This document shows, in pieces, positions 1,927 through 43,922 of a stretch of 43,922 nucleotides of DNA. Where the stretch lies: IMG/VR virus record IMGVR_UViG_3300045988_002593, positions 1 to 43,922 of that record, one strand, 5' to 3'. This DNA comes from a virus (Duplodnaviria > Heunggongvirae > Uroviricota > Caudoviricetes). The notes beneath the pieces are model-generated. The model was given only the letters and a program-made list of their open reading frames with translations, did no database searches and was not told where the DNA came from. The translations under genes were made by a program, and so were the position numbers. Every line of letters starts with the position of its first letter. Position 1 is the stretch's first letter.

Positions 1927-1998
1927 TTGACGTCTGAATAGCCTGCTAGTATAGTTAAAACGCGTCATACACTAATTTAACGAACAGAGAGAGCAAAT

Positions 1999-5626: not shown

Positions 5627-5662
5627 GTTCACCTATAGCCCCGAAAGGGGCTTTCTTATAGT

Positions 5663-6739
5663 ATGCTATTAACTTTAGCGCCACAGGGTTTATCTATGAG
5701 CTTACTTACATCCCTAATCAGCCATCAGATATGGCTGCAACGCACCGCATCCGGTGAAGTGAAAGACCTCACGCCGTTCATTCAGGAGATAAGGGATGAA
5801 ATCAAACGGCAGGTGCTGTTATTCGGTGACGACGGTCGCAGCACTGCGCGACTGAATAAACTGTTACGCGACCTGGAAGAAGCACTAACCGGTATTACGG
5901 GTGACTGGCAAACAAAGCTAACAGACGACCTTAAGGAACTGTCGGCGTACGAGGCTGAGTGGAACGTAAAGACACTGACCGCCAACGTAGACGCGGAATT
6001 TGTTACGCCTACCGCTGAGCAGGTATGGGCCGCTGCCGAGTTTCAACCATTATCATTGAGCGACAAGCCCGTTGATTTCACCAAGCTGATGTCTGGATGG
6101 GGCGAAACGGAAGTAGCACGTCTTGTAACTGGAGTTAAGATGGGCTTTGTGCAAGGTCAAACCACACGGCAGATTGTTAAGAATGTTGTTGGCGCTGGTG
6201 GACTAGCCGACATCTCAGAACGTAACGCGACTACGGTAATCCGCACCGCGCTGTCCCACGTATCCAACGAGGCCCGTAACGAGACGTACCGCCAGAACGA
6301 CGACATCATCGAGAAATATGAGTGGGTGTCAACTTTGGACAGCCGTACCAGCACGATTTGCAGGGCCAGAGACGGAATGACGTGGGAAATCGGTAAAGGT
6401 CCGATGCCACCAGCCCATCCTAATTGCCGAAGTACCACTGCACCGGTAATCAGTTCAGAGTTCGACTTCCTTGATAAAGGCGCAAAACGTGCGGCTAAGG
6501 GTGCGGACGGCGGTACTCAGGTAAGCGCAGACACCACCTATTACGAGTTCCTGAAACAACAACCAGCATGGTTTCAGGACCAGGCGCTCGGTCCTGTTCG
6601 TGGTAAGATTTTCCGTAACAGCGGTATATCGCCGGAAGAGTTTCGCGTAAAATCTGTAGATGGTTTCGGGAATCCGCTTACGCTTAAGCAGATGGCGGAA
6701 CTCGATAAACGTGTTGCTGATTATCTGAAAGGGGATTAA
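5663..6739 (+). CDS. Head morphogenesis / minor head protein
   Basis: 358-aa ORF directly after the portal gene, the usual position of this family. Confidence 0.55.
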   Translation: MLLTLAPQGLSMSLLTSLISHQIWLQRTASGEVKDLTPFIQEIRDEIKRQVLLFGDDGRSTARLNKLLRDLEEALTGITGDWQTKLTDDLKELSAYEAEWNVKTLTANVDAEFVTPTAEQVWAAAEFQPLSLSDKPVDFTKLMSGWGETEVARLVTGVKMGFVQGQTTRQIVKNVVGAGGLADISERNATTVIRTALSHVSNEARNETYRQNDDIIEKYEWVSTLDSRTSTICRARDGMTWEIGKGPMPPAHPNCRSTTAPVISSEFDFLDKGAKRAAKGADGGTQVSADTTYYEFLKQQPAWFQDQALGPVRGKIFRNSGISPEEFRVKSVDGFGNPLTLKQMAELDKRVADYLKGD

Positions 6740-7433: not shown

Positions 7434-7460
7434 TTTTCACCTCCTGCTTAAGTTAACTGA

Positions 7461-7489
7461 ATAGTACCCTATTATATTGGGGTGTGCAA
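7461..7489 (-). promoter_or_regulatory. Promoter, TTGCAC-17-TACTATTCA class
   Basis: Minus-strand -35 TTGCAC (7484-7489), 17-bp spacer containing TATAAT, -10 TACTAT (7461-7466); drives 7230-7433. Confidence 0.5.
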
Positions 7490-7555
7490 ACTATTTATTT
7501 ACTTATTCCAGTTATTCCGCTCAATTGTAAATGTTGTAATAAACTATTCGAATAG

Positions 7556-7584
7556 TTGACTTTTCACTAAAAATATGATAAGCT
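7556..7584 (+). promoter_or_regulatory. Promoter with extended -10 (TTGACT-17-TAAGCT) preceding conserved element A
   Basis: -35 TTGACT, TG at -15/-14, -10 TAAGCT; identical architecture at 39399-39427; -35 overlaps the 14-bp palindrome ACTATTCGAATAGT (7543-7556). Confidence 0.45.
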
Positions 7585-7590
7585 CCACCT

Positions 7591-7791
7591 GAGCTTGTGA
7601 AGTATGAACAAGCGACCGCGGCGCGGGCAGGTAACGGAGCGGGACGTAAGTCCTGAGTGTAGTTACGCTGACGCGTTCGGAAGGGCCATACTCTATTGCT
7701 TGTGTAAAAAGTAACAGGTTTACTTAGATTACGCCGTTTCTATGTTTAAATGATAAGGACTAGCGCCCTGCTTTAAGGCAGGGCTTTACTT
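7591..7791 (+). ncRNA. Candidate structured leader/ncRNA, copy A (conserved core about 7591-7698)
   Basis: About 118 nt conserved with 39424-39541; compensatory stem GGAC-GUAA-GUCC here versus GUGC-GUCA-GCAC in copy B; ends at an intrinsic terminator. Confidence 0.3.
7765..7791 (+). terminator. Intrinsic terminator between element A and the spanin genes
   Basis: GCCCTGC/GCAGGGC stem, TTTAAG loop, then TTTACTT. Confidence 0.5.
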
Positions 7792-9091: not shown

Positions 9092-10140
9092 TGGCAATTA
9101 CTACTATCGGCGACATCGTAACTGGTAAAGAATCGGTAATCCTGTCCTACATGACAGAGGACCCGGTAGAGAAAACCGCGTTCTTCCAGTCCGGTATCCT
9201 TACCTCGACTCCGTATGCCGCCGCTATCGCAAACGGCCCGTCCAACAAAGCGGTCCTGCCGTACTGGAAAGCTATTGATACCTCTATCGAGCCGAACTAC
9301 TCGAACGACGTATATCAGGACGTCGCCACCCCGCGTAACGTGCAAACCGGTGAGATGGATGTTCGCGTAGCTTACCTGAACGAAGGTTTTGGTCAGGCTG
9401 ACCTGACGGTAGAACTGACCAGCCAGAATCCGCTGCAATCCGTGGCTTCCCGTCTGGATAACTTCTGGCAGCGTCAGGCACAACGCTGTCTTATTGCTAC
9501 CGCGCTCGGTCTGTACAATGATAACGTAGCGGCTACCGATGCGTACCACGAGCAGAACGACATGGTTATTGACGTGTCCGCTACTCTGGGCTTCGACTCC
9601 GGCGCGTTCATCGATGCTACCCAGACTATGGGCGATGCGCTGATGGGTAACGGTGGTGAAGTGCTTGGCGCTATCGCGATGCATAGCTTCGTTTATGCGC
9701 AGGCACGTAAGCAGCAGCTTATCGACTTCATCCGTGACGCGGACAACAACACCATGTTCGCCACCTACCAGGGCTACCGCGTGATTGTTGACGACAGCAT
9801 GACCGTAGTCGGCACTGGCCCGACCCGTAAGTTCATCTCCATCATCTTCGGCAACGGCGCTATCGGTTACGGTGAAGGTTCTCCGTCCAACCCGCTGGAA
9901 TACGAGCGCGAAGCGTCCCGCGGCAACGGCGGCGGCGTTGAAACCCTGTGGACCCGTAAGACCTGGTTGCTACATCCGTTTGGTTACAGCTTCACCAGTG
10001 CAGTAATCACTGGCAACGGCACCGAGACTACCCCGCGCTCTGCTTCCTGGCAGGACCTGGCGAACGCCTCCAACTGGAACCGTGTGGTTGACCGCAAGCA
10101 CGTACCGATTGCCTTCCTGGTAACTGGTGTCGGTGCTTAA
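9091..10140 (+). CDS. Major capsid protein
   Basis: 349-aa ORF following the scaffold, followed by a strong terminator. Confidence 0.7.
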   Translation: MAITTIGDIVTGKESVILSYMTEDPVEKTAFFQSGILTSTPYAAAIANGPSNKAVLPYWKAIDTSIEPNYSNDVYQDVATPRNVQTGEMDVRVAYLNEGFGQADLTVELTSQNPLQSVASRLDNFWQRQAQRCLIATALGLYNDNVAATDAYHEQNDMVIDVSATLGFDSGAFIDATQTMGDALMGNGGEVLGAIAMHSFVYAQARKQQLIDFIRDADNNTMFATYQGYRVIVDDSMTVVGTGPTRKFISIIFGNGAIGYGEGSPSNPLEYEREASRGNGGGVETLWTRKTWLLHPFGYSFTSAVITGNGTETTPRSASWQDLANASNWNRVVDRKHVPIAFLVTGVGA

Positions 10141-10155
10141 GGTTAAGCTATAATC

Positions 10156-10184
10156 GAGAGGGACTTCGGTCCCTCTTTTCATTT
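10156..10184 (+). terminator. Intrinsic terminator after the capsid gene
   Basis: GAGAGGGAC/GTCCCTCTT stem with TTCG tetraloop, then a T-tract. Confidence 0.65.
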
Positions 10185-10199
10185 ACTAAGAGGTAAATT

Positions 10200-10499
10200 A
10201 TGGTCAAGACCGGAAAAGGCTTGCCGCGCAGCCTTCAGAATGTCGATTTCGGCGACTTTGATATCCCAGTCACGCCTGCTACTACCAGCGTAGTTGGTGG
10301 GGTTAAAAAGTCAGCTACTGTGGCTGCACCTGCGGCCATTACCGCCGCCGCCGGGGTGCAGTCCGCCGCGGCACCGACTAAGGAAGAGTTCGACGCCCTT
10401 GTAGCGGAGTACAACAAACTCCGAACCGATGTTACCGCGCTGCGCACTACCGTAGCAAATCTGTTGACTGCGCTTAAAAACGCAGGAACCGTAAGCTAA
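10200..10499 (+). CDS. Hypothetical structural protein (Ala-rich, C-terminal coiled coil)
   Basis: ORF with RBS AAGAGG; between the capsid and head-tail genes. Confidence 0.5.
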   Translation: MVKTGKGLPRSLQNVDFGDFDIPVTPATTSVVGGVKKSATVAAPAAITAAAGVQSAAAPTKEEFDALVAEYNKLRTDVTALRTTVANLLTALKNAGTVS

Positions 10500-10511
10500 A
10501 GGAGCTTAAAA

Positions 10512-10862
10512 ATGGTTGATGTAATCAAACGTCGTATTACCGGTGTTTCTGATGATTCTCCTGCCGATGGTCAGGTTGAAATCGATATGGCGAATATCTC
10601 GCCAGCGTCTTTTTCTGCCGCGCTTGCGGCTACCACCGCAGTTACGGTGGGGCAGACTATGACTCTTACCGTAGTGGTAACTGGCGGTCTGGAGCCGTAT
10701 TCCTACCAGTGGTACAAAGATAACAACGCCATCGACGGAGCCACCGCAGCTACCTATGCGAAGGCGTCCACTACTACCGCAGATTCAGGCACGTATAAAG
10801 TGGTTGTTCACGATGTGTATGGTAATATTATCTCCAGCAGCACCGTAGCAACTGTGTCTTAA
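10512..10862 (+). CDS. Ig-like domain protein (possible decoration protein)
   Basis: Motif YSYQWYKDNNAI...DSGTYKVVVHDVYGN resembles an Ig-like fold; paralogous to 6739-7200. Confidence 0.5.
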   Translation: MVDVIKRRITGVSDDSPADGQVEIDMANISPASFSAALAATTAVTVGQTMTLTVVVTGGLEPYSYQWYKDNNAIDGATAATYAKASTTTADSGTYKVVVHDVYGNIISSSTVATVS

Positions 10863-10898
10863 TACAACGGCCCTTCGGGGCCGTAATAAGGAAAGGTC

Positions 10899-11078
10899 AT
10901 GGCAGATAATTACGTAATCCGCGAAAAGTATACCCACGTTGATATCGTTGACGGACAGGTGATGCCTGTTCGCGGTGTGGTAGAAGCGGATGAACTGGTT
11001 GCAACCCAACCAGACAATGAAGAAGCGCACAACAACGGCGGTGGTACTAAGCGTCGTCGCCGTAAGTCAGAGGAATAA
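10899..11078 (+). CDS. Hypothetical small protein (59 aa) with basic C-terminus
   Basis: ATG with RBS AAGGAAAGG; ends 3 nt before the next gene; below the ORF-track cut-off. Confidence 0.4.
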   Translation: MADNYVIREKYTHVDIVDGQVMPVRGVVEADELVATQPDNEEAHNNGGGTKRRRRKSEE

Positions 11079-11081
11079 TTT

Positions 11082-11594
11082 ATGCCGCTAATCGTGGAAA
11101 CTGGGGTGATCGTCCCAAATGCCGACAGTTACATTAGTCTGGCTGACGCCCGCGCGTTAGCGGCTAATTATGGCCTTGAGCTGCCGGAAGACGATACCGC
11201 AGCAGAGGTGGCCTTACGCAACGGTGCTACTTATGTAGGGCTTGCAGAACCGCAGATGTGCGGTCGTCGAGTATCCGCCGAACAGTCTCTTGCATACCCC
11301 CGCACCGGCGTTACGTTAAACGGGTTCCCGGTGGTCAACAACGCCATTCCGAAACAGGTGATTCTTGCGCAGGTAATCGCTGCCGCTACATATGGCGAGG
11401 GCACCGAAGTCCGGGCTAACTCAGACGGTCGCGCCGTGCAGACTGAGCGTGTCGAGGGTGCGGTAACAGTGACCTACTTCAACAATGGCAACAGTGGCGC
11501 TACGACCGCGATTACCGCTGCTGACGACGCTTTACGCCCGTTATTGTGTGGCGGTCTTAACAATGGTTTCTCGTTTAACGTGTACCGGGGTTAA
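11082..11594 (+). CDS. Putative head-tail connector / adaptor protein
   Basis: Position between the capsid and tail genes; 170 aa. Confidence 0.45.
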   Translation: MPLIVETGVIVPNADSYISLADARALAANYGLELPEDDTAAEVALRNGATYVGLAEPQMCGRRVSAEQSLAYPRTGVTLNGFPVVNNAIPKQVILAQVIAAATYGEGTEVRANSDGRAVQTERVEGAVTVTYFNNGNSGATTAITAADDALRPLLCGGLNNGFSFNVYRG

Positions 11595-11596
11595 AA

Positions 11597-11722
11597 ATGG
11601 CGAAGACTAAATCAGAGATATTCACGCTAATCGGTTCCGAGCTACCGGACAACACGACCGGACAACACGACCGGACTTATTACGCCTGCGAAGTTGCGCG
11701 GGGTATTAACCCAGATGGCTGA
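11597..11722 (+). pseudogene. 5' fragment of a structural gene split by a 13-bp tandem duplication
   Basis: ATG at 11597 with RBS; frame ends at 11722; deleting one 13-bp repeat unit fuses it in frame with 11694-12224. Confidence 0.4.
11645..11676 (+). repeat. Tandem direct repeat CCGGACAACACGA, about 2.5 copies
   Basis: Two full 13-bp units (11645-11657, 11658-11670) plus a partial third; the unit is not a multiple of 3. Confidence 0.9.
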
Positions 11723-12224
11723 CTCACCTATTTACGCCACTCCGGGTGTTAAAGAGGTTGAAGTTCTCCGCGCTGCGTCGACAGTAGCGCAAGCGCCTAC
11801 CGCAGTAGATACGGCGTTGCAGGTATCGTTCGGCTCTGCTCAGGGTAGTGCATCTGACCCGGTAATGATTAATGCTGCGGGGCTGGTTACATTCAACACC
11901 GCGGGTAACTATGCCGTTCGCATCAAGTTACAGGCCGGTCGCTCCGGCGCTAGCGGAACGTCTATCCTGTTGTCGCGTATCCTCATTAACGGCGCTCAGT
12001 ACGGCTCACCAGCAGCTACGAAACTTGTTAGCTCGGAAACCACCATCCCTATTGAATCCCGTGTAGTGATTAACCCAACCGCCGGGCAAACATTCGCCGT
12101 TCAGATTATGCGAGATAGCGCCGGGACTAACTTCGGAGGCGTATACCCGCAGGTGGCTACTGTAACTGCATGGGGCACGGCACCGTCCGCGCTACTGGTT
12201 ATTTCGAGACTGGAGGCTGCCTGA
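11694..12224 (+). CDS. Putative head-tail joining / neck protein (downstream part of the split gene)
   Basis: ORF track; reading frame opens at 11631; an internal ATG at 11715 could reinitiate. Confidence 0.45.
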   Translation: MRGVLTQMADSPIYATPGVKEVEVLRAASTVAQAPTAVDTALQVSFGSAQGSASDPVMINAAGLVTFNTAGNYAVRIKLQAGRSGASGTSILLSRILINGAQYGSPAATKLVSSETTIPIESRVVINPTAGQTFAVQIMRDSAGTNFGGVYPQVATVTAWGTAPSALLVISRLEAA

Positions 12225-12583
12225 TGAGCACTGCTTTCAGTAAACGTATGCAAGGCGTGGGTACACGCCTGTTAACCAAATTCGGTAGCACGGTATCTCT
12301 GATTCGCGCTGGCTCGAAAGTGTGGGATGAAGTTCTCGGTGAGTACGTCTGGTCTGCGGATGAAGTGTTGCCGTTGAAGGCCGTTCCGGTTCCTGTTAAT
12401 GCGGGTCTGGTGAACGGTACGACGATTCAGGCTGGTGACATGATTGTTAAAGCCGATTACAGCGTCGTTCCTAAGATGGAAGACAAAGTGCAATTCGGCG
12501 GCGAGCAATGGTCCGTCGTAGCCATTGAGAAGAAGGTGGTTAACGATGATGTTGTGGCCTACTTTATTCAGGTGAGAAAATGA
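12224..12583 (+). CDS. Putative head closure / neck protein
   Basis: ATG overlaps the upstream stop (TGATG); within the head-tail joining cluster. Confidence 0.45.
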   Translation: MSTAFSKRMQGVGTRLLTKFGSTVSLIRAGSKVWDEVLGEYVWSADEVLPLKAVPVPVNAGLVNGTTIQAGDMIVKADYSVVPKMEDKVQFGGEQWSVVAIEKKVVNDDVVAYFIQVRK

Positions 12584-12975
12584 GTTTCGCGCTGGACGTC
12601 TCTAAGTTCGTGGAAAAGGCGAAGAAGAACCCTGAGAAGGTGATGCGTCAGGTGTCTATCAAGCTGTTTTCCGCTATTATAAAGGCGAGTCCGGTAGATA
12701 CTGGTCGGTTTCGCATGAACTGGATGGCATCTGGCGGTACTCCTGCTTCCGGGATTACGGATGCTACGGATAAATCAGGAAACACAGCAACCGGAAACGC
12801 TACAAGTTTCGTGCTGAAAGCCACCGACTGGCATGAGTTCACGCTGACAAATAACCTGCCGTATGCACAACGGCTGGAGTATGGCTGGTCGCAACAGGCC
12901 CCGCAAGGATTCGTCAGGACTAACGTGTCCCGCTTCCAGCAACTCATTAACGAAGAAGCTAGCAAGGTGAGATGA
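12580..12975 (+). CDS. Putative tail completion protein
   Basis: ORF track; overlapping start/stop; gene order. Confidence 0.45.
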   Translation: MSFALDVSKFVEKAKKNPEKVMRQVSIKLFSAIIKASPVDTGRFRMNWMASGGTPASGITDATDKSGNTATGNATSFVLKATDWHEFTLTNNLPYAQRLEYGWSQQAPQGFVRTNVSRFQQLINEEASKVR

Positions 12976-16985: not shown

Positions 16986-17027
16986 AACATAACTCCTGAT
17001 TTGAGATAACATCGTTGGTGTAAGTGA

Positions 17028-17056
17028 ATAGTACGCTATTATATCAGGGTGTGCAA
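17028..17056 (-). promoter_or_regulatory. Promoter, TTGCAC-17-TACTATTCA class, for the minus-strand cassette
   Basis: Minus-strand -35 TTGCAC (17051-17056), 17-bp spacer containing TATAAT, -10 TACTAT (17028-17033). Confidence 0.5.
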
Positions 17057-17163
17057 GTAGTATGTTAGAATAATTTTGCGCCTAGTGTCGCACACGAAAA
17101 GCGGGTGGTTCCCGTCTGGCGCATTTCCTTTAACCAGTAACCTCTTAACCAAAGGATTAAAGA

Positions 17164-25125: not shown

Positions 25126-27111
25126 ATGTCAAGCGGATGCGGTGACGTTTTAAGCCTGGCGGATTTACAGACCGCCAAGAAACATCAGATTTTCGAGGCC
25201 GAGGTTATCACTGGCAAATCCTGCGGTGTAGCTACGGGTGCAGACATTGATTACGCAACAAATCAGGTTACCGGGCAGACGCAGAAGACGCTTCCTGCCG
25301 TGTTGCGCGACGCGGGTTTTTCTCCGGTGTCATGGGATTTCTCCACAGGCGGCACGTTAACCGTTAACGACCGGGACAAGGTGGTGTATGACCCTGTTAG
25401 CAAAACATGGTACTCGTACGCAGGTACGTTACCAGTTGTTGCCCCTGCATCGTTTAATCCAGTCGGTAACGCTAACTGGAAGCCGCAGACAGACCCAAAT
25501 TTGCGTAATGATTTGGCGTCAAGTACCGCCGGTTTAGGGGCTTCACTGGTGTCTTTTTCCAACGGTAACACCGTTGAAACATTATCTGACGCGGAAGGTG
25601 CCAAGAACATAGGCAGTGGCGAAAGGAGTTTGCTTGCACGTAACAATGATATTAAGCATTCTGGCGACTTTTCTACCCTTCAAGCCGCGGTAGATGCGTC
25701 GTTAACTAAAAACGACTTAATTGTTTCTCCGGGTGAGTATACAGAAGCAATCACTCTGGGTAGTAAGCAGATAAAAGGTGTAGGTGGTGCTGCAATATTA
25801 AAACCATCGGCAAACTATGCAAATACTGTACAGGTTAATTTATCCGCCCCGCACTGGCAGTTTCGACACAGCGGTGGTTTTGCCGTAGATGGTACAGGTA
25901 CAACTGGGGCCGTAGGTATTAGTTTTGACCCGTCAGACCAATATTCCGGACGTCATAATTTTAGTGATTTATACATCCACAACATCAACAAGGCCATTCA
26001 GAAGCCTTCCGGGAACATCGGTAATACATGGAGAAATATTGGGGTATCTACGTGTGATTGGGGGTATTACGCGATTAGTGGCTCAGAGATGCATTGCGGG
26101 GCCGATACCCTCTACAATATCCACTTCGACGGCATCTCCACCTATGCCGTCTACCTAAACGGCACTGTCGATAACGGCGGGATAGGCGGATGGTGGCTTA
26201 AAGACTCCATTATTGAGGCTTCCGGAGGCGGCGGGATATATTTAAAAAGCAAATCAGGTGACTGCCCTACATCTCCATGCGGGGTATCCAATGTATGGAC
26301 GGAAGCGATTGCAACATCATCGGCTGTTCAGGTAGACGGCGTGGCGCAAAAACCGCGAGTTCTCAAGTTGGTAGACACCGCGATATTCTTTGCTGAGTAT
26401 TCTTATCTCAACAACATCGAGCTATCCAACTCCAACTTAGTAACTTATGGTTGCCGTTTTGACAACGCCGATGGTAATCAGGATATTGTAGTGGATGCAC
26501 AAAGCACCATCGTAGCCCACGACGTGTATTTAAACGGCAGCTCTGGAAAGGACGTTATTGTAGAGTCTGTCGCGTCGCAATCCGCAACGATAGCCACTAC
26601 AAACTTGTCTCTACGAGGAAATTTAACAAGGGGACGAGTGTTTAATACGCCGACGGGGAATAAGTTAAAAGCTATCACATTTGACTCAGGTAGCCATAAT
26701 TTTTCTGGTAGCGGTACCGTTAACGGTTCGACTGTATCTGACGGACTTCACGCCGCTACATGTACCGAATTTTCATTCCCTGGGTCCGGTTTATATGAAA
26801 TGGTAGCGTCAAGAACGACACTTACATCCGGTAGATGGTACGTGTGGGGCGTCAACTCTCGCCTCCAATCAGGAACAGCAGATGTGAGTATAACGTCAGG
26901 TATTACTATGGGTAGCGTTTATACTAAGTCTGGTGAGTGGATTAGCACATTTGGGGTGGGTAAAGCTTCCGCTAACGGTACTGTAGGTCTGTACGTCTCT
27001 ACTGGGGGAGGTTCAGGTGCTGTTATCAGATTTAGTGACTTCTTCATCGCTGAGTTTACGACGCAGGCTCAGGCTTTAGCTTTCGCTAACTCCCGAATGT
27101 CGTTGGCTTAA
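25126..27111 (+). CDS. Tailspike / receptor-binding protein with beta-helix domain (possible depolymerase)
   Basis: 661 aa; Gly/Asn/Thr/Ser-rich repetitive central region typical of right-handed beta-helices; last structural gene; RBS AGAGGA. Confidence 0.6.
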   Translation: MSSGCGDVLSLADLQTAKKHQIFEAEVITGKSCGVATGADIDYATNQVTGQTQKTLPAVLRDAGFSPVSWDFSTGGTLTVNDRDKVVYDPVSKTWYSYAGTLPVVAPASFNPVGNANWKPQTDPNLRNDLASSTAGLGASLVSFSNGNTVETLSDAEGAKNIGSGERSLLARNNDIKHSGDFSTLQAAVDASLTKNDLIVSPGEYTEAITLGSKQIKGVGGAAILKPSANYANTVQVNLSAPHWQFRHSGGFAVDGTGTTGAVGISFDPSDQYSGRHNFSDLYIHNINKAIQKPSGNIGNTWRNIGVSTCDWGYYAISGSEMHCGADTLYNIHFDGISTYAVYLNGTVDNGGIGGWWLKDSIIEASGGGGIYLKSKSGDCPTSPCGVSNVWTEAIATSSAVQVDGVAQKPRVLKLVDTAIFFAEYSYLNNIELSNSNLVTYGCRFDNADGNQDIVVDAQSTIVAHDVYLNGSSGKDVIVESVASQSATIATTNLSLRGNLTRGRVFNTPTGNKLKAITFDSGSHNFSGSGTVNGSTVSDGLHAATCTEFSFPGSGLYEMVASRTTLTSGRWYVWGVNSRLQSGTADVSITSGITMGSVYTKSGEWISTFGVGKASANGTVGLYVSTGGGSGAVIRFSDFFIAEFTTQAQALAFANSRMSLA

Positions 27112-27115
27112 AACT

Positions 27116-27140
27116 AAGGCCCCAAACGGGGCCTTTTCTC
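27116..27140. terminator. Bidirectional intrinsic terminator
   Basis: AAGGCCCC/GGGGCCTT stem with AAAC loop and T-tract; between convergent modules. Confidence 0.6.
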
Positions 27141-27277
27141 TACTCTTCTGATAACTTCTCCAGTACAAACGCCAGTTGCGCATTAGCGGCGTCTCTTTGC
27201 TGACGTAGCCGCAGAACCTCTTCTTCGAGTTCCTTGATACGTTTTTGCAATGCCGGAATTGGGGCTATGATGTTCAT
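27140..27277 (-). CDS. Hypothetical small coiled-coil protein (45 aa)
   Basis: ATG overlaps the stop of the Toprim gene (ATGA); last gene of the minus-strand operon. Confidence 0.3.
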   Translation of the reverse strand: MNIIAPIPALQKRIKELEEEVLRLRQQRDAANAQLAFVLEKLSEE

Positions 27278-27789
27278 CTGGTAAATTTCCTCGCAAGATA
27301 CGTTATTTCTTCTTCACAAAGTTCATCAAGGTCGTTAGATACAAATCCTCTGGTGAATGTTTTGCTGAACTTTAATCCAGCTTTATCATTGTCGCCAGCG
27401 CATACCCAGTCATACGGCAAAAGTGACATTTGCTGCCGTAGGTCTGTTGATATATTTGACCCCAGTGCGCTTACAGCATTGAACCCGCAATTCATCAAGG
27501 CTACGGCTTTGAATATGCTTTCGGTAACAAATACCACCCCGCTTTCCGGCAAATACTCAAGCCCCCATAAACACGGCCTTGTTGTTCTGGTAAAGTACCG
27601 CGCGTCTTTAGGGTTTTTACAGTTCTTTTCGGCATGTGGTTTGTAATGCTGGTATCCGCGAAGCCTACCGTCAAACCCCCACAGGTAAAACGTAGCTACT
27701 CCAGGGGCTAAGACTACCTGGAGACGGTCAGCGTCAAACCCACGCGCCAGCAGATGAGCTTTAAGTAGAAACTCTTCGAAATCCATCAT
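27274..27789 (-). CDS. Toprim-domain protein (primase-like catalytic core)
   Basis: Motifs VFVTESIFKAVAL and CAGDNDKAG resemble the Toprim E...DxD signature; start overlaps the helicase stop. Confidence 0.5.
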   Translation of the reverse strand: MMDFEEFLLKAHLLARGFDADRLQVVLAPGVATFYLWGFDGRLRGYQHYKPHAEKNCKNPKDARYFTRTTRPCLWGLEYLPESGVVFVTESIFKAVALMNCGFNAVSALGSNISTDLRQQMSLLPYDWVCAGDNDKAGLKFSKTFTRGFVSNDLDELCEEEITYLARKFTR

Positions 27790-29216
27790 TTCTTACCTCG
27801 TCTCTTCATGTAATTAAGCAACTCTTCCTGTACCGATTTCTTCTCGTCGGTACGCGCGGCGACAACCTCGTCCAGAGTGTCTTTAGCAACGATGTGATAA
27901 AGGAACACCGGGCGCTCGTGACCCGCCTGTTTCTGGCGGACTGGGCCTATGCGCTCAACAACCTGCAAATAGTGCTCAAGGTTCCAGCCTTGCGAGATGA
28001 ACGCCAGATGATGACCCCCGTCCTGTAAATTCAAACCATGCCCGGCTGACGCAGGATGCACGCATAAAATCTCGATTTCCCCACGGTTCCACGCTTCCAT
28101 CTGCTTGTTCCCCCTAGCGCCTTTGGCGAACGCCTGTGCCTGTGGGAATCGCTTAAGGATACGCTCCAGTTCGTGTTTAAACTGATAGGCTACAAGCAGC
28201 GGCGCGCCCTGTAACTCCTCGACAATTGACTCAAGCGCATCCAGTTTCGTGTCGTGCACTTTCTCCCAGTCTTTGGTCGCTTCGCCGTCTGGTCCTGACA
28301 CATACACAGCACCGGATGCAATTTGCAAGCACTTCGACGTCTTCGCCGCGGCGTTAGCCGCTTCAACTTCCCCGCTCTCCAGTTCCGCAAATAACTTCTC
28401 CTCCATATCAATGTACGCCTGACGCGCTTTCTTCGGCAGGTCGATTTCGACCGGTACAATAATCGGCGCTTCACAACCGAACCATTCGGCGGGGTCTATG
28501 GTCAGGCTGATGTCTTTCATCTTCTGATGAATCTCATTATCTGCACCCGGGCGTGCGTGATATTCACGTGCCATAGCCGATTTGCCTTTCTGTACCGAGT
28601 TAAACCAGCGGTCAGTGAACGCTGTGTACGAAGAACCGAGGCGCTCGCCAGCGTCGATAAACCAGTTCTGCCCCCACAGGTCTTTGAGGCCGTTTGGTGA
28701 TGGTGTGCCCGTAAGGTTGATGAAACGCTTAACCTTGCCGAACGCAACCTTGCTAAGCGCCTTCGCCCTCTTGCTACCACCTGAACGGCTGCGGAACGAT
28801 TTAAGCTTCGTGCTTTCATCGGCAACGATAACGGTAAAAGGCCAGTCGTCTTTGCCGTAGTAGTCAATCAGCCACTCGATAACTTCGTAGTTAGTGCACA
28901 CCACGTTAGCATCAGACTCCAGCGCTGCGATGCGGCGCTTTTCTGAACCGGTTGCATCTACGACGCGCAGACAAGGGAATTTCCATTTCTCTTGTTCTGC
29001 AGGCCATGTACCGGACGCAACGCGCAACGGGGCGAGGATTAACACGCGGTCCTCTTCTGTAAGCTGCCCGTTGCGGAACAGCCGGTTAAGCACCCACATA
29101 GTGGAGGAGGTTTTACCCCCTCCCATGCCGCACCAGATATTACAGCGCGGGTGTTGCAGCATGAACGAGGTCATGAGCTTCTGGTACTCTCGACGGATAA
29201 ATTTAGACATACTCAA
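27786..29216 (-). CDS. SNF2-like superfamily 2 helicase
   Basis: Walker A GMGGGKTS, motif II DEST, motif III LTGTP. Confidence 0.8.
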   Translation of the reverse strand: MSMSKFIRREYQKLMTSFMLQHPRCNIWCGMGGGKTSSTMWVLNRLFRNGQLTEEDRVLILAPLRVASGTWPAEQEKWKFPCLRVVDATGSEKRRIAALESDANVVCTNYEVIEWLIDYYGKDDWPFTVIVADESTKLKSFRSRSGGSKRAKALSKVAFGKVKRFINLTGTPSPNGLKDLWGQNWFIDAGERLGSSYTAFTDRWFNSVQKGKSAMAREYHARPGADNEIHQKMKDISLTIDPAEWFGCEAPIIVPVEIDLPKKARQAYIDMEEKLFAELESGEVEAANAAAKTSKCLQIASGAVYVSGPDGEATKDWEKVHDTKLDALESIVEELQGAPLLVAYQFKHELERILKRFPQAQAFAKGARGNKQMEAWNRGEIEILCVHPASAGHGLNLQDGGHHLAFISQGWNLEHYLQVVERIGPVRQKQAGHERPVFLYHIVAKDTLDEVVAARTDEKKSVQEELLNYMKRRGKK

Positions 29217-29407
29217 CCCTTAACGTAGAGCACCAGCTCTTTACGCCCGAACGCCGTAACGTTACCAGTTACATCTTCGATAACCAGTTTACCGTTCGAC
29301 TCGACGAACACCGTATCAACGGCAACAGGGCGACGTGTCTTAACGTTGAAAATCATGTCGCCAGGTACGATGTCACGTGCTGGTTTGCGGTCATATTCGT
29401 GTTTCAT
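29213..29407 (-). CDS. Hypothetical protein
   Basis: ORF track; stop overlaps the helicase start; own promoter upstream. Confidence 0.5.
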   Translation of the reverse strand: MKHEYDRKPARDIVPGDMIFNVKTRRPVAVDTVFVESNGKLVIEDVTGNVTAFGRKELVLYVKG

Positions 29408-29437: not shown

Positions 29438-29722
29438 CTAACTATAATAGTTCGCTATTAGGTCGTCAACCTGTTTAAACGAACCGACGACAAAAACATT
29501 TGCACCGCGTTTACGCATCCGCTCATGCTCACGTAACTGGTGTGGGTCTGGCTTCGTATTTTCGTCTTTCTTAACCTCGACGAACCAGACGATGCCGCCG
29601 GGGAGAATTACCAGCAGGTCAGGAGCACCGGAGCGCCCCTCGTAGGAAAGTTTACGAACGAGGCCACCAATGGCCTCGAATCGCTCTTTTGCGTATTTCT
29701 GAATCTTGCCTTCCGGGGTCAT
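29438..29722 (-). CDS. VRR-NUC domain nuclease
   Basis: Motif GAPDLLVIL...WFVEVKK matches the PD-(D/E)XK VRR-NUC signature. Confidence 0.65.
   Translation of the reverse strand: MTPEGKIQKYAKERFEAIGGLVRKLSYEGRSGAPDLLVILPGGIVWFVEVKKDENTKPDPHQLREHERMRKRGANVFVVGSFKQVDDLIANYYS
29441..29469 (-). promoter_or_regulatory. Promoter, TTGACR-17-TATAGT class
   Basis: Minus-strand -35 TTGACG (29464-29469), 17-bp spacer, -10 TATAGT (29441-29446); lies within the 3' end of the VRR-NUC gene. Confidence 0.5.
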
Positions 29723-32990: not shown

Positions 32991-33019
32991 ACTATAATAG
33001 CTAACTATTCAGGTGTCAA
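32991..33019 (-). promoter_or_regulatory. Promoter, TTGACA-17-TATAGT class
   Basis: Minus-strand -35 TTGACA (33014-33019), spacer with GAATAGT, -10 TATAGT (32991-32996); leader contains hairpin CCGGGAGCTGCCCGG (32964-32978). Confidence 0.55.
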
Positions 33020-35564: not shown

Positions 35565-35792
35565 TTACTCGCCGTCGCCTTCTGTAAGGCTATCGTCTAT
35601 TAATTCAAATTTACCGTTTGGGTGTTGAATAGCTTCTTGCCCGCAATGGTCGCAGACAACAAGTTTATCGAACCCATCAAACTCGTCCCCGACTACGCAA
35701 GAAAGTACAAATTTATGTTTTGTGCACACTTCCTGCGATTCTCCGAAAATTGCTAGAAAACCTTTAGCTATGGCTCCCGTTATTGTGTTCAT
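35565..35792 (-). CDS. Hypothetical Cys-containing protein (possible zinc ribbon)
   Basis: C...C and CDHCG cysteine pairs; first gene after promoter 35821-35849. Confidence 0.5.
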   Translation of the reverse strand: MNTITGAIAKGFLAIFGESQEVCTKHKFVLSCVVGDEFDGFDKLVVCDHCGQEAIQHPNGKFELIDDSLTEGDGE

Positions 35793-35820
35793 ATCCGCCC
35801 CTCTCGTTTGGTATGGGCTA

Positions 35821-35849
35821 ACTATAATAGCGAACTATTCACATGTCAA
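35821..35849 (-). promoter_or_regulatory. Promoter, TTGACA-17-TATAGT class, in the divergent control region
   Basis: Minus-strand -35 TTGACA (35844-35849), spacer with GAATAGT, -10 TATAGT (35821-35826); overlaps the first of two 16-bp direct repeats. Confidence 0.55.
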
Positions 35850-35913
35850 TGGGCTTTTCTAAAATAATTAATATGGTACTATTCACATATCAACTGACTA
35901 AGGAGTAATTGAC

Positions 35914-36129
35914 ATGCAACCATCTGAACTAGGTATCCGTGTAGAACAACGCCGTAAAGAACTCGGCATCTCCCAGCGCCGTTTGGCGGCCCTGACCGGC
36001 GTTTCCCAGGGCGCGATTAACCAACTGGCACTTGGAGTAACTCAGGACGTCCGCCCGGCAACGCTGTTCAAACTGGCGGAAGTTCTGGAAGTAGACGCCA
36101 AGTGGCTGGCGTTAGGTGAAGGGGCTTAA
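35914..36129 (+). CDS. Cro/CI-type HTH transcriptional regulator
   Basis: Motif LGISQRRLAALTGVSQGAINQL; lone + strand gene in a minus-strand block; RBS AAGGAG. Confidence 0.65.
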   Translation: MQPSELGIRVEQRRKELGISQRRLAALTGVSQGAINQLALGVTQDVRPATLFKLAEVLEVDAKWLALGEGA

Positions 36130-36144
36130 AGCCCCTTTCTTTTT
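36121..36144 (+). terminator. Intrinsic terminator after the HTH gene
   Basis: GGGGC/GCCCC stem with TTAAA loop followed by TTTCTTTTT. Confidence 0.6.
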
Positions 36145-36457
36145 ATAGCAACTTATCGAGTTCTTCCAAATTCTTAATAGTGTGTTGCACGTTCAGGTAC
36201 TGAATCCAGGCGAGAAACCACGCACTTACAGGAAAACTTATAACAATAGTTATCGATATAATTAATTTGAAAAGGCACTTTATAATCTCTGCCAGCGTCA
36301 TGTCTAAAATGTCTTTAAACTCCGCAAAAATCCCCGCTGCATACACACAAAAAGTCCACCAGTTGTTGCTTACAGCGGAAACACATGTCAGGTATGACGG
36401 GCGGTATCCTGCCTTCACTGCTTTAAACGGGTTATCTATAAAATCGTAAATATTCAT
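36143..36457 (-). CDS. Hypothetical membrane protein
   Basis: Two hydrophobic helices; start overlaps the primase stop. Confidence 0.5.
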   Translation of the reverse strand: MNIYDFIDNPFKAVKAGYRPSYLTCVSAVSNNWWTFCVYAAGIFAEFKDILDMTLAEIIKCLFKLIISITIVISFPVSAWFLAWIQYLNVQHTIKNLEELDKLL

Positions 36458-38899: not shown

Positions 38900-39112
38900 T
38901 TACTTAACGCCCGCAATCCACGCACGCTCCGAAGCGTAGAAACGACACTTACTTAAAGCCTCGATTGGCATCTTAATAATGCGTGTCGGTTCCAACAAAT
39001 GATTAGGCTTACATATTTCCGCATAGAATCCGCTGTCAGTAATTTCCGACGCAAACTTAAACCAGTATTTAACTTTACAGTTTTCAAAGTAACAACCCAT
39101 ACGCCCAATCAT
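38900..39112 (-). CDS. Hypothetical protein
   Basis: ORF track; start overlaps the AlpA-like gene stop. Confidence 0.45.
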   Translation of the reverse strand: MIGRMGCYFENCKVKYWFKFASEITDSGFYAEICKPNHLLEPTRIIKMPIEALSKCRFYASERAWIAGVK

Positions 39113-39291
39113 TTCACGTTCTCCTTAATCCATGCTTCAACTTTATTACGGTCAAATGTTCCTGGTAAACGGCGACCCATAACCTTAATACAGCAATCAG
39201 GGAATTTACCACTGCGCAACCAGTTATTAATTGTTTGACGTGTCACCCCGATACGTTCAGCCACTTCATTCTGTGTCATGTAATGCTGCAT
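39109..39291 (-). CDS. AlpA/excisionase-like HTH DNA-binding protein
   Basis: Motif MTQNEVAERIGVTRQTINNWLRSGKFP; start moved to ATG 39291 with an AGGAG RBS. Confidence 0.6.
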   Translation of the reverse strand: MQHYMTQNEVAERIGVTRQTINNWLRSGKFPDCCIKVMGRRLPGTFDRNKVEAWIKENVK

Positions 39292-39351: not shown

Positions 39352-39398
39352 CCAAAACACCACACAAAGTTACTAATATACAAAAGATGCTAATGGTA

Positions 39399-39427
39399 TT
39401 GACTTTTACTAAGAAATGTGCTAAGCT
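39399..39427 (+). promoter_or_regulatory. Promoter with extended -10 (TTGACT-17-TAAGCT) preceding conserved element B
   Basis: Same architecture as 7556-7584: -35 TTGACT, TG at -15/-14, -10 TAAGCT. Confidence 0.45.
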
Positions 39428-39433
39428 CCACCT

Positions 39434-39665
39434 GAGCTTGTGAAGTATGAACAAGCGACCGCGGTGCGGCAGGAAACGGAGCGGTGCGTCAGCACTGAGT
39501 GTAGTGTCGCTGCCTGCATTCGGAAGGGCCATAATCTATTGTAAATCCCGTCTAAATAACCCAAGTCACTAATAATTAAAAGTTTCTATAGTTGCCGTAA
39601 GCAAGGTAGAGAGTACTTCACTCCGCTGGGGTGGGCTAAAGCCCACCCGCTGCGTTGCGTACTCT
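39434..39665 (+). ncRNA. Candidate structured leader/ncRNA, copy B (conserved core about 39434-39541)
   Basis: Conserved with 7581-7698; compensatory stem GUGC-GUCA-GCAC; divergent 3' part ends in an 8-bp GC-rich hairpin (39629-39648). Confidence 0.3.
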
Positions 39666-39707: not shown

Positions 39708-39736
39708 TTGCACACCCCAACATAATAGGATACTAT
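39708..39736 (+). promoter_or_regulatory. Promoter, TTGCAC-17-TACTATTCA class, for the second early operon
   Basis: -35 TTGCAC, 17-bp spacer containing CATAAT, -10 TACTAT, 34 nt upstream of the ATG at 39771. Confidence 0.5.
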
Positions 39737-39770
39737 TCACTTATCGGAACGAGACATAAGGAATTTAGAA

Positions 39771-40821: not shown

Positions 40822-40850
40822 TTGCACACTGGGATAGAATAGTCTACTAT
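40822..40850 (+). promoter_or_regulatory. Promoter, TTGCAC-17-TACTATTCA class
   Basis: -35 TTGCAC, 17-bp spacer with TAGAAT, -10 TACTAT, 30 nt upstream of the ATG at 40881 (RBS GAGGAGAGG). Confidence 0.5.
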
Positions 40851-40880
40851 TCATTTACACAAACGAGAGGAGAGGCAGAG

Positions 40881-43780: not shown

Positions 43781-43812
43781 ATCCCGGCCCTGACCCAGCC
43801 GGGATTTTTTTT
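43781..43812 (+). terminator. Strong intrinsic terminator after the lysis cassette
   Basis: ATCCCGGC/GCCGGGAT stem with 9-nt loop followed by eight T; the T-tract runs into the terminal overlap. Confidence 0.7.
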
Positions 43813-43922
43813 ATCTATTTTCTGTGATGACTAGTTGACTATTATCCTCGACCCTATTATATTTACTTCATCGACAACGAGAACGGAGTAGAGAGAAATG
43901 GGCAACGTATCGACGATAGAAA
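43804..43922. repeat. Terminal overlap copy, identical to 1-119
   Basis: Exact repeat of window bases 1-119. Confidence 0.9.

Follow-up and report, generated by a model that had tools for sequence, protein, structure and literature searches.

A 14-bp palindrome at candidate promoters throughout a lytic Kagunavirus genome and its possible reader, a 434 Cro-like protein

Results

The divergent gap and its two 16-bp repeats

The stretch analysed here, IMG/VR record IMGVR_UViG_3300045988_002593 (43,922 nt; hereafter the window), is a complete Kagunavirus (Guernseyvirinae) genome, that of a lytic E. coli phage. We focus on a 121-bp gap between a minus-strand gene and the divergent gene of a helix-turn-helix (HTH) protein of 71 amino acids (aa), in which a first-pass annotation had noticed two near-identical 16-bp direct repeats, and on a 14-bp palindrome, AATAG-N4-CTATT, of which each repeat contains one half (coordinates of all features are given in Table 1). 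Over the surrounding 2 kb, the window is 99.3% identical to Escherichia phage vB_EcoM_SHAK7858 and 86-97% identical to many Kagunavirus genomes, and hundreds of Salmonella Jerseyvirus genomes are related. The gene map was obtained by transferring the SHAK7858 gene set onto the window by tblastn. Virion genes run rightward (~2.3 to 14.6 kb and 17.2 to 27.1 kb), DNA-metabolism genes form a leftward block (27.1 to 39.3 kb), and small genes and the lysis genes run rightward from 39.3 kb to the window end. The HTH gene is the sole plus-strand gene between ~27.1 and 39.3 kb. A lysogeny module is absent, with no integrase in the annotation of the 99%-identical genome, which makes a lytic-cycle regulator, as proposed initially, a sensible reading.

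The gap is a divergent control region, conserved in relatives. Its two repeats, ACTATTCACATGTCAA and ACTATTCACATATCAA, lie exactly where they had been placed, are identical at 15 of 16 positions, with their starts 44 bp from each other. Repeat 1 covers the -35 hexamer of a strong minus-strand promoter candidate, P_L1, which lies 29 nt upstream of the gene start, combines sigma70 hexamers with a spacer within 17±1 bp (its start is predicted) and would serve a leftward block comprising gene 47, a DUF551 gene and a PD-(D/E)XK exonuclease gene. Repeat 2 overlaps the weaker tandem candidate P_L2, whose function is doubtful because its -35 is mutated in some relatives; between the end of repeat 2 and the HTH ribosome-binding site, AAGGAG, lie 6 nt. 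Two rightward candidates could drive the HTH gene: P_R (a), back to back with P_L1, and P_R (b), an extended -10 that resembles promoters found further right in the genome, at 39724 and 40838 (class B, below).

The similarity between the two repeats extends leftward to 25 nt (35825-35849 versus 35869-35893, 84% identical) and ends there, which excludes a 44-bp tandem duplication. Searching the window for the 16-mer with at most 3 mismatches gave 5 matches versus 0.52 expected, a number reached in 0 of 100 shuffles. Oriented by the gene that follows, the five matches align as TTGACA-nn-TGAATAGT-nnnn-TATTATAGTT. Each repeat, read on the minus strand, thus consists of a -35 hexamer (TTGACA or TTGATA), 2 nt and a TG-flanked palindrome half, and the other palindrome halves lie outside the repeats, at 35826-35833 and 35870-35877. 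The other genomic copies have in common with the repeats only the ACTATTCA part and the opposite palindrome arm. A dyad within each 16-mer was also considered: TTCACATGTCAA is palindromic at 10 of 12 positions, but this symmetry is lost in repeat 2 and in relatives with a 1-nt insertion. The best explanation of the sequence is that each repeat is the visible part of a promoter-plus-operator module of ~25-30 bp, in which the 14-bp inverted repeat, and not the 16-mer, is probably the functional unit. The gap holds two such palindromes, O1 (perfect) and O2 (one conserved mismatch), 44 bp apart, and so lacks a tripartite operator.

Palindromic sites are enriched and placed at candidate promoters genome-wide

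We counted 13 matches to AATAG-N4-CTATT with at most 1 mismatch in the window versus 1.28 expected, and none of 100 shuffles reached 13; a chance origin of the repeats and of the palindrome is ruled out by these shuffles. In a blind count of all palindromes made of two 5-bp arms and a gap, AATAG-N4-CTATT ranked first, with 7 exact copies versus a null maximum of 3. The ends of the window are identical (1-119 = 43804-43922), so that the window is the whole genome with either terminal redundancy or an assembly overlap, and the palindromes at 27-40 and 43830 are one site, leaving 12 distinct sites. All 12 lie at gene or operon starts, and in 10 cases the site overlaps a pair of sigma70-like -35/-10 hexamers where an operon begins. 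The local operator array proposed in the first-pass annotation does not hold in that form, since the same palindrome is found at 10 further sites, 9 of them in candidate promoters. Conversely, all intergenic sigma70 matches scoring at least 10/12 carry the palindrome except one candidate (2267-2296), the remaining matches of that score without palindrome being mostly within genes.

The palindrome is found at positions -25 to -12, at -19 to -6 or across the -35, i.e. in three registers and in both orientations, as expected from a separate protein-binding site rather than a part of polymerase recognition. Class A sites have the form TTGACA-nnTG-[palindrome]-ATAGTT with a -10 TATAGT and include O1 (35826, minus strand) and, weakly, O2 (35870, minus strand). 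In class B, the element is inverted, TTGCAC-N10-[palindrome], and its ACTATT arm makes the -10 TACTAT. In class C, the palindrome lies across the -35. Orienting the class B sites by hexamer score failed, both strands giving 8/12; their orientation was taken from the gene that follows (4/4), the shared TTGCAC and a leader (…TTACACCAAC/AAACGAGAGG) common with class A. The copy at 5657 overlaps the annotated start codon of the head-morphogenesis gene and is conserved in phage Schulenburg (3369); no sigma70 hexamers were found there. The packaging and head promoters carry conserved imperfect sites. An equation of late promoters with imperfect sites is not clean, as the holin/endolysin operon starts at a perfect site (40838).

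Two candidate promoters have no full palindrome, 39393 (plus strand, TTGACT-N17-TAAGCT) and ~39350 (minus strand, TTGCTT-N17-TATACT), the latter leading to the excisionase-like gene and the helicase-primase. The former belongs to a promoter-plus-leader module of ~50 nt that is duplicated, TTGACTTTT...TAAGCTCCACCTGAGCTTGTGAAGTA with a hairpin AAGCTC/GAGCTT, at 7555-7600, before the spanin and capsid genes, and at 39393-39440, in the mostly non-coding region of ~480 bp where leftward and rightward genes diverge; the palindrome is missing from this second copy owing to an insertion of 2 nt.

Table 1. Coordinates of the features discussed. Positions refer to the window; promoters are sigma70-type candidates, fractions are hexamer scores.
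Feature	Position	Strand	Description
First gene downstream of P_L1	35565..35792	-	75 aa, no Pfam match; variable gene slot in relatives
P_L1	35821..35849	-	TTGACA-N17-TATAGT, 11/12; -35 invariant (37/37)
O1	35826..35839		perfect, AATAG-CGAA-CTATT; in spacer and -10 of P_L1
Repeat 1	35834..35849		ACTATTCACATGTCAA; right half of O1, 2 variable nt, reverse complement of P_L1 -35
P_R candidate (a)	35838..35865	+	TTCACA-N16-TAAAAT, 10/12; back to back with P_L1 -35
P_L2	35864..35893	-	TTGATA-N18-AATTAT, weak tandem candidate, 9/12; -35 mutated in 3/37
O2	35870..35883		AATAT-GGTA-CTATT, one conserved mismatch; overlaps candidate -10/start site of HTH promoter
P_R candidate (b)	35874..35882	+	extended -10 TG-g-TACTAT inside O2; putative, read from the sequence
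Repeat 2	35878..35893		ACTATTCACATATCAA; right half of O2, minus-strand TTGATA-like hexamer
Ribosome-binding site, HTH gene	35900..35905	+	AAGGAG, read from the sequence
HTH gene	35914..36129	+	Cro/434-type HTH protein, 71 aa; candidate palindrome reader
Intrinsic terminator, HTH transcript	36118..36147	+	hairpin and T-run; HTH stop codon in loop
Class A site, 1 mismatch	1937..1950	+	TTGACG-N17-TATAGT; upstream of terminase, portal and head genes
Palindrome copy, 1 mismatch	5657..5670		TATAGTATGCTATT; portal/head-morphogenesis junction, right after GC-rich hairpin
Class B site	7460..7473	-	TTGCAC-N17-TACTAT; upstream of leftward 67-aa gene; orientation inferred
Class C-like site, 1 mismatch	7551..7564	+	AATAGTTGACTTTT, TTGACT-N17-TAAGCT; upstream of spanin, scaffold and capsid genes
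Class B site	17027..17040	-	upstream of leftward Sie, exonuclease, PNK, dNMP-kinase operon; orientation inferred
Class A site	29446..29459	-	TTGACG-N17-TATAGT; upstream of helicase operon; matching Jersey place annotated as promoter
Class A site	32996..33009	-	TTGACA-cc-TG-AATAGTTAGCTATT-ATAGTT; upstream of SSB and DNA polymerase genes
Excisionase-like HTH gene	39112..39291	-	60 aa (PHROG 66); rival candidate reader
Class B site	39724..39737	+	upstream of rightward small genes (39771 onward)
Class B site	40838..40851	+	upstream of rightward genes, from 40881 through holin and endolysin
Class C site, 1 mismatch	43830..43843	+	AcTAG-TTGA-CTATT, TTGACT-N17-TATATT; matching Jersey site annotated as promoter

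The palindrome arms are conserved while centre and flanks drift

We aligned the gap with that of 36 IMG/VR relatives (37 sequences with the window). The arms of O1 and O2 and the -35 of P_L1 are invariant, and O2 is identical in 34 of the 36 relatives. Within the module, the variable positions are the two bases in the centre of O1 (35831-35832) and the 2-3 nt that separate ACTATTCA from TGTCAA. Accordingly, positions 9-10 of repeat 1 (35842-35843), which are also the final two -35 positions of P_R (a), vary, with a 1-nt insertion there in 16 of the 37 sequences, and three relatives have mutations in the TCAA end of repeat 2. The first-pass proposal of the 16-bp direct repeat as the recognition unit is therefore not borne out: the middle of repeat 1 is free to vary and the palindrome arms are invariant. 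The offset between O1 and O2 (44 bp in the window) ranges from 43 to 45 bp among Kagunavirus relatives, compared with 55 bp in Jersey. The whole region is retained although the adjoining leftward gene is exchanged among these sequences.

The same holds genome-wide. Comparison of 11 orthologous sites with phage Schulenburg gave differences at 0 of 110 arm positions, 5 of 44 central positions and 24 of 264 positions of the 12-nt flanks (Fisher p = 0.0016 for arms versus centres and 0.0003 for arms versus flanks). Conserved arms around a free centre are the pattern expected of an operator with contacted arms, and the pattern also shows that selection does not act on the 16-mer as a unit.

In phage Jersey, the same core is present at matching promoters, several of which are annotated as promoters in the Jersey record. 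Almost every Kagunavirus site is asymmetric, with TGAATAG as one half and ATAATAG as the other; TAATAG is the sequence of 13 of the 14 Jersey halves, which makes the sites there symmetric, TAATAG-N4-CTATTA. Serratia phage Otaku has 4 palindrome matches versus 0.47 expected, three of them in candidate promoter contexts, including a class A copy, TTGACA-gc-TGAATAGAATACTATT, upstream of a putative nucleic-acid-binding (SSB-like) gene. In Salmonella phage St162 (FSL SP-031-like), the palindrome is not enriched (1 match versus 1.1 expected); a different pattern, ATTAG-N4-STAAT, derived post hoc from its intergenic regions, is found at six intergenic, promoter-proximal regions.

The HTH protein resembles 434 Cro

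The assignment of the HTH gene to the Cro/CI type is well founded. Its product matches Pfam HTH_3 with 49.7 bits (cutoff 23; E = 3.9e-13) and 434 Cro, itself 71 aa long, over essentially the full length (residues 6-68; phmmer E = 8.5e-6), the N-terminal domain of the 434 repressor being also among its best solved relatives. The AlphaFold2 model (five helices; predicted local distance difference test score, pLDDT, 77) has a predicted fold that resembles 434 Cro, the best PDB match being 2cro (template modelling score, TM, 0.70/0.75; 40% identity). Further fold neighbours are the N-terminal domains of 434 repressor and P22 C2, SinR, HipB, C.AhdI and C.BclI. The Schulenburg record labels the gene 'Cro', citing 434 Cro.

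Homologues with at least 77% identity form 20 clusters, all on phage-sized contigs of ~40-45 kb, and the recognition helix GVSQGAINQLALG is invariant among these homologues (77-100% identical). No close homologue was found in one genome per species of 185,579 species, the best match being 51% identical and in unrelated taxa, which fits a non-lysogenising lineage. The protein could therefore not be linked to an operator through prophage homologues, as none exceeds 51% identity. It is present in all four lineages, Kagunavirus, Jersey, Otaku and St162, and the three AATAG lineages have VSQ at the start of its recognition helix, where St162 has VTQ. The other HTH protein considered, which is excisionase-like, is absent from Otaku and St162. 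The 71-aa protein is the sole candidate DNA binder found across all four lineages, which favours it, on sequence grounds, as the palindrome reader.

In St162 (9779-12685) and Otaku (26573-29341), the Cro-like gene is co-directional with primase-helicase and first in that operon; the two genes are convergent in Kagunavirus and Jersey, a difference which implies that the segment was inverted.

Discussion

A candidate operator distributed over the genome

Taken as a whole, the first-pass annotation was right in what it observed and partly right in what it made of it: the control region, the promoter and the HTH regulator stand, whereas the repeat as recognition unit and the confinement to one locus do not. 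Judging from the distribution of the palindrome, the gap is probably not a local switch but one node in a repressor circuit that spans the genome. Locally, a Cro-type gene beside operator-bearing divergent promoters is ordinary; noteworthy are that the candidate operator unit differs from the one proposed earlier and that almost all recognisable promoters of this obligately lytic phage carry it.

The reading that we prefer, with a probability of about 0.5, is that the palindrome is the operator of a dimeric HTH repressor encoded by the phage, most likely the adjacent 71-aa protein, which would repress P_L1, its own gene and other promoters. We infer the binding, the identity of the binding protein and the repression from the sequence patterns above, and all start sites are predicted: near 35814, 32984 and 29434 on the minus strand, near 35872 or 35889 (HTH gene), 1962 and 43870 on the plus strand, and those of class B. 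In this model, a Cro-like dimer would bind AATAG-N4-CTATT; occupancy of O1 would block RNA polymerase at the spacer and -10 of P_L1 and turn down the recombination/replication block to the left. O2, conserved and presumably weaker, would cover the -10/start region of the HTH promoter, either P_R (a) or the class B-mimicking extended -10 of P_R (b), and would provide negative autoregulation. The same binding would turn down about nine other candidate promoters, those of the SSB/DNA polymerase, helicase, terminase/head, spanin/capsid and Sie/nucleotide-kinase genes and of two rightward accessory/lysis operons. In a phage that is strictly lytic, the HTH protein would then slow or time transcription by the host polymerase across the genome, and the promoters at 39393 and ~39350, which have no full palindrome, would be candidates for unregulated immediate-early transcription.

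A bolder version is tentative and, in our judgement, has the odds clearly against it. Here the phage, an obligately lytic siphovirus, would wire essentially all its host-polymerase promoters, among them those of the replication, accessory, lysis and virion genes, to one orphan Cro-type protein through a single operator used in three registers, making this protein a dose-dependent governor or timer, with perfect sites on the DNA-metabolism and accessory promoters and imperfect ones on the packaging/head promoters and on its own gene. Were this so, activation at some sites or titration by replicating genomes might come into play, and the protein could fill the role that a sigma/anti-sigma cascade has in other lytic phages.

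Several observations weigh against our preferred reading of a repressor circuit run by the 71-aa protein. A repressor site on late-gene promoters also is odd for a simple early shut-off model. The class B promoters score only 8/12, with equal-scoring pairs on the opposite strand. Although the HTH proteins of Kagunavirus and Jersey share only 48% identity and their recognition helices differ at several positions, the 5-bp core is the same in both; between these same two genera, the excisionase-like HTH protein is 80% conserved. The pattern ATTAG-N4-STAAT of St162 is not rare as a bare pattern, with 11 matches versus 4.3 expected in the window. Finally, an RNA-seq study of the Kagunavirus K1B4 assigned a 'specific DNA binding' gene, _004, located beside an AAA helicase gene, _005, to the middle and not the early class (PMC12645636). 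Judged by gene order, _004 probably corresponds to the Cro-like gene and _008 to the excisionase-like gene.

Alternative explanations

It is rather unlikely, in our estimate, that the palindrome is a real operator with another reader, be it the excisionase-like HTH protein, another, uncharacterised phage protein or a host regulator. The excisionase-like protein has in its favour that it is so well conserved between Kagunavirus and Jersey, where the AATAG sites are clearest, and missing from St162, where there are none; that its own promoter has no full palindrome; and that an HTH-domain gene, _008, is among the only four early genes of K1B4 (PMC12645636). The systematic asymmetry of the Kagunavirus sites is also unusual for a simple homodimer. 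Otaku speaks against this protein as the reader, since it has the palindrome at three candidate promoters without the excisionase-like gene, which cannot be the reader there. In addition, a 14-bp inverted repeat of 5+4+5 layout suits a Cro/C2-type dimer better than a winged-helix Xis-like protein. As for a host factor, Jersey and St162 infect the same host genus and have different motifs; the motif thus tracks the phage lineage and not the host, which argues against both a host factor and the polymerase as reader. The sites of the host regulators ArgR, Lrp, Fis, IHF, LexA and CRP/FNR were set aside for mismatched spacing. The site of the MarR-type regulator SlyA, TTAGCAAGCTAA, which has the same TAG-N4-CTA layout, is a low-probability lead only.

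That no regulator is involved, the motif being a promoter cassette spread by duplication or recombination and conserved for its use by RNA polymerase, is unlikely. Sites do have leader sequences in common (...ACCAAACGAGAGG) and mark the borders of variable gene slots, and CTATT overlaps -10-like words (TATTAT, TATAGT, TACTAT). Yet no single polymerase contact accounts for three registers in both orientations, the arm located in the spacer is no less invariant than the hexamers, with drift at the positions next to it, and the changes in flanks and half-sites are concerted within each lineage, the polymerases of E. coli and Salmonella being essentially the same. We consider it slightly less probable still that the protein has a dual action, repressing where the site overlaps the -10 and activating from near -40 to -45, as CI does at P_RM or as C proteins do. 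The geometry at two places would allow it: O1 is centred ~39.5 bp upstream of the predicted start of P_R (a), and site 17027 is centred ~44 bp upstream of the predicted start of an extended -10 promoter of the tail genes (TG-t-TAGAAT); C.AhdI and C.BclI are moreover among the structural neighbours. Against it, these starts are predicted only, and the -35 of P_R (a) varies in relatives. A purely local switch of the leftward operon and the HTH gene, with the 16-bp direct repeats themselves as operator units, is very unlikely. Their 15/16 identity, 44-bp spacing and position alongside the HTH gene speak for it, but repeat 1 takes an extra base in its middle in 16 of 37 sequences, the spacing changes between 43-45 bp in Kagunavirus and 55 bp in Jersey, and the other genomic copies keep only the ACTATTCA part with the other palindrome arm.

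Comparison with known systems

The closest likeness is to phage 434. The protein matches 434 Cro best in both sequence and structure, with the same length of 71 aa and a five-helix HTH_3 fold; as in 434 OR and OL, a 14-bp inverted repeat lies over promoters, and the cro-type gene stands beside its own operators, here candidate operators. In St162 and Otaku, the HTH gene also has the Cro position, first in the primase-helicase operon. Unlike 434, this obligately lytic phage has no CI partner, P_RM, integrase or tripartite OR, and its sites number 12 genome-wide versus 6 at two loci. The gap departs from a lambdoid switch likewise in that the divergent neighbour has no Pfam match and that no CI is found in the annotation of the 99%-identical genome. 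The 434 operator reads ACAA-N6-TTGT, versus AATAG-N4-CTATT here. The layout of the palindrome is that of the P22 C2/Cro operator, TTAAG-N4-CTTAA, which has 5-bp arms and a 4-bp non-contacted centre, and the N-terminal domain of P22 C2 is a significant structural neighbour of the HTH protein; P22 differs in its half-site and in being temperate, with an immunity region.

The controller proteins of restriction-modification systems, such as C.AhdI and C.BclI, are stand-alone HTH_3 dimers of ~70-80 aa that act as timing devices from palindromic boxes upstream of their own gene. Here, in contrast, the neighbours are genes of unknown function and helicase-primase, without a restriction-modification pair, and the sites are genome-wide. 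Many copies of one short repressor site across a phage genome are also known as the stoperators of the mycobacteriophages L5 and Bxb1. Those are asymmetric, inside transcription units and in a single orientation, in temperate phages; the present sites are palindromic, over promoter cores and in both orientations.

Significance

Guernseyvirinae (Kagunavirus, Jerseyvirus) are among the most commonly isolated phages of E. coli and Salmonella, are used in therapy and biocontrol cocktails and have been proposed as a small engineering chassis. The BASEL paper describes these phage groups as largely understudied, and our search of the literature on Guernseyvirinae promoters, operators and this regulator found annotation-level mentions only, no study and nothing on how these phages time their transcription. 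Kagunavirus is described as lytic, and the HTH gene is listed as 'transcriptional repressor DicA' while the phage is stated to be repressor-less and lytic (PMC9787291); elsewhere, the gene is labelled 'DicA/Cro-like repressor' or is sometimes unannotated. A defined 14-bp candidate operator at a dozen mapped sites offers a directly testable model of gene control. If the model is right, it would provide a set of regulatable promoters for engineering and explain why a 'repressor' gene in these genomes is no sign of lysogeny.

Other features of the locus and genome

The slot next downstream of P_L1 is a hot-spot of gene exchange, with at least 7 unrelated coding sequences across the 37 relatives, all of which abut the same conserved leader and ribosome-binding site (…TCTCCTCTCGTTTGG…, 35793-35810). 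At the other end of the HTH gene, the terminator (36118-36138) has its T-run on the plus strand only, so that leftward helicase-primase transcripts could read antisense through the HTH gene into P_L1.

The SHAK7858 record, OR594183.1, has Kagunavirus gene content but carries the name vB_EcoM and a classification as Autographiviridae/Kayfunavirus. The HTH gene is not annotated in it, a 31-aa antisense open reading frame being called in its place.

An Rfam search of the 121-bp gap found no known RNA element. Elsewhere in the window, a match to the int-alpA RNA (RF02996) was observed at 17075-17139 on the plus strand, in the divergent gap ahead of the tail-chaperone and tape-measure operon, with 36.6 bits versus a gathering threshold of 35.8 (E = 4.6e-4). 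The SHAK7858 annotation has a 37-aa minus-strand coding sequence over this match. The possible extended -10 TG-t-TAGAAT mentioned above (17063-17071) has its predicted start close to the 5' end of the match.

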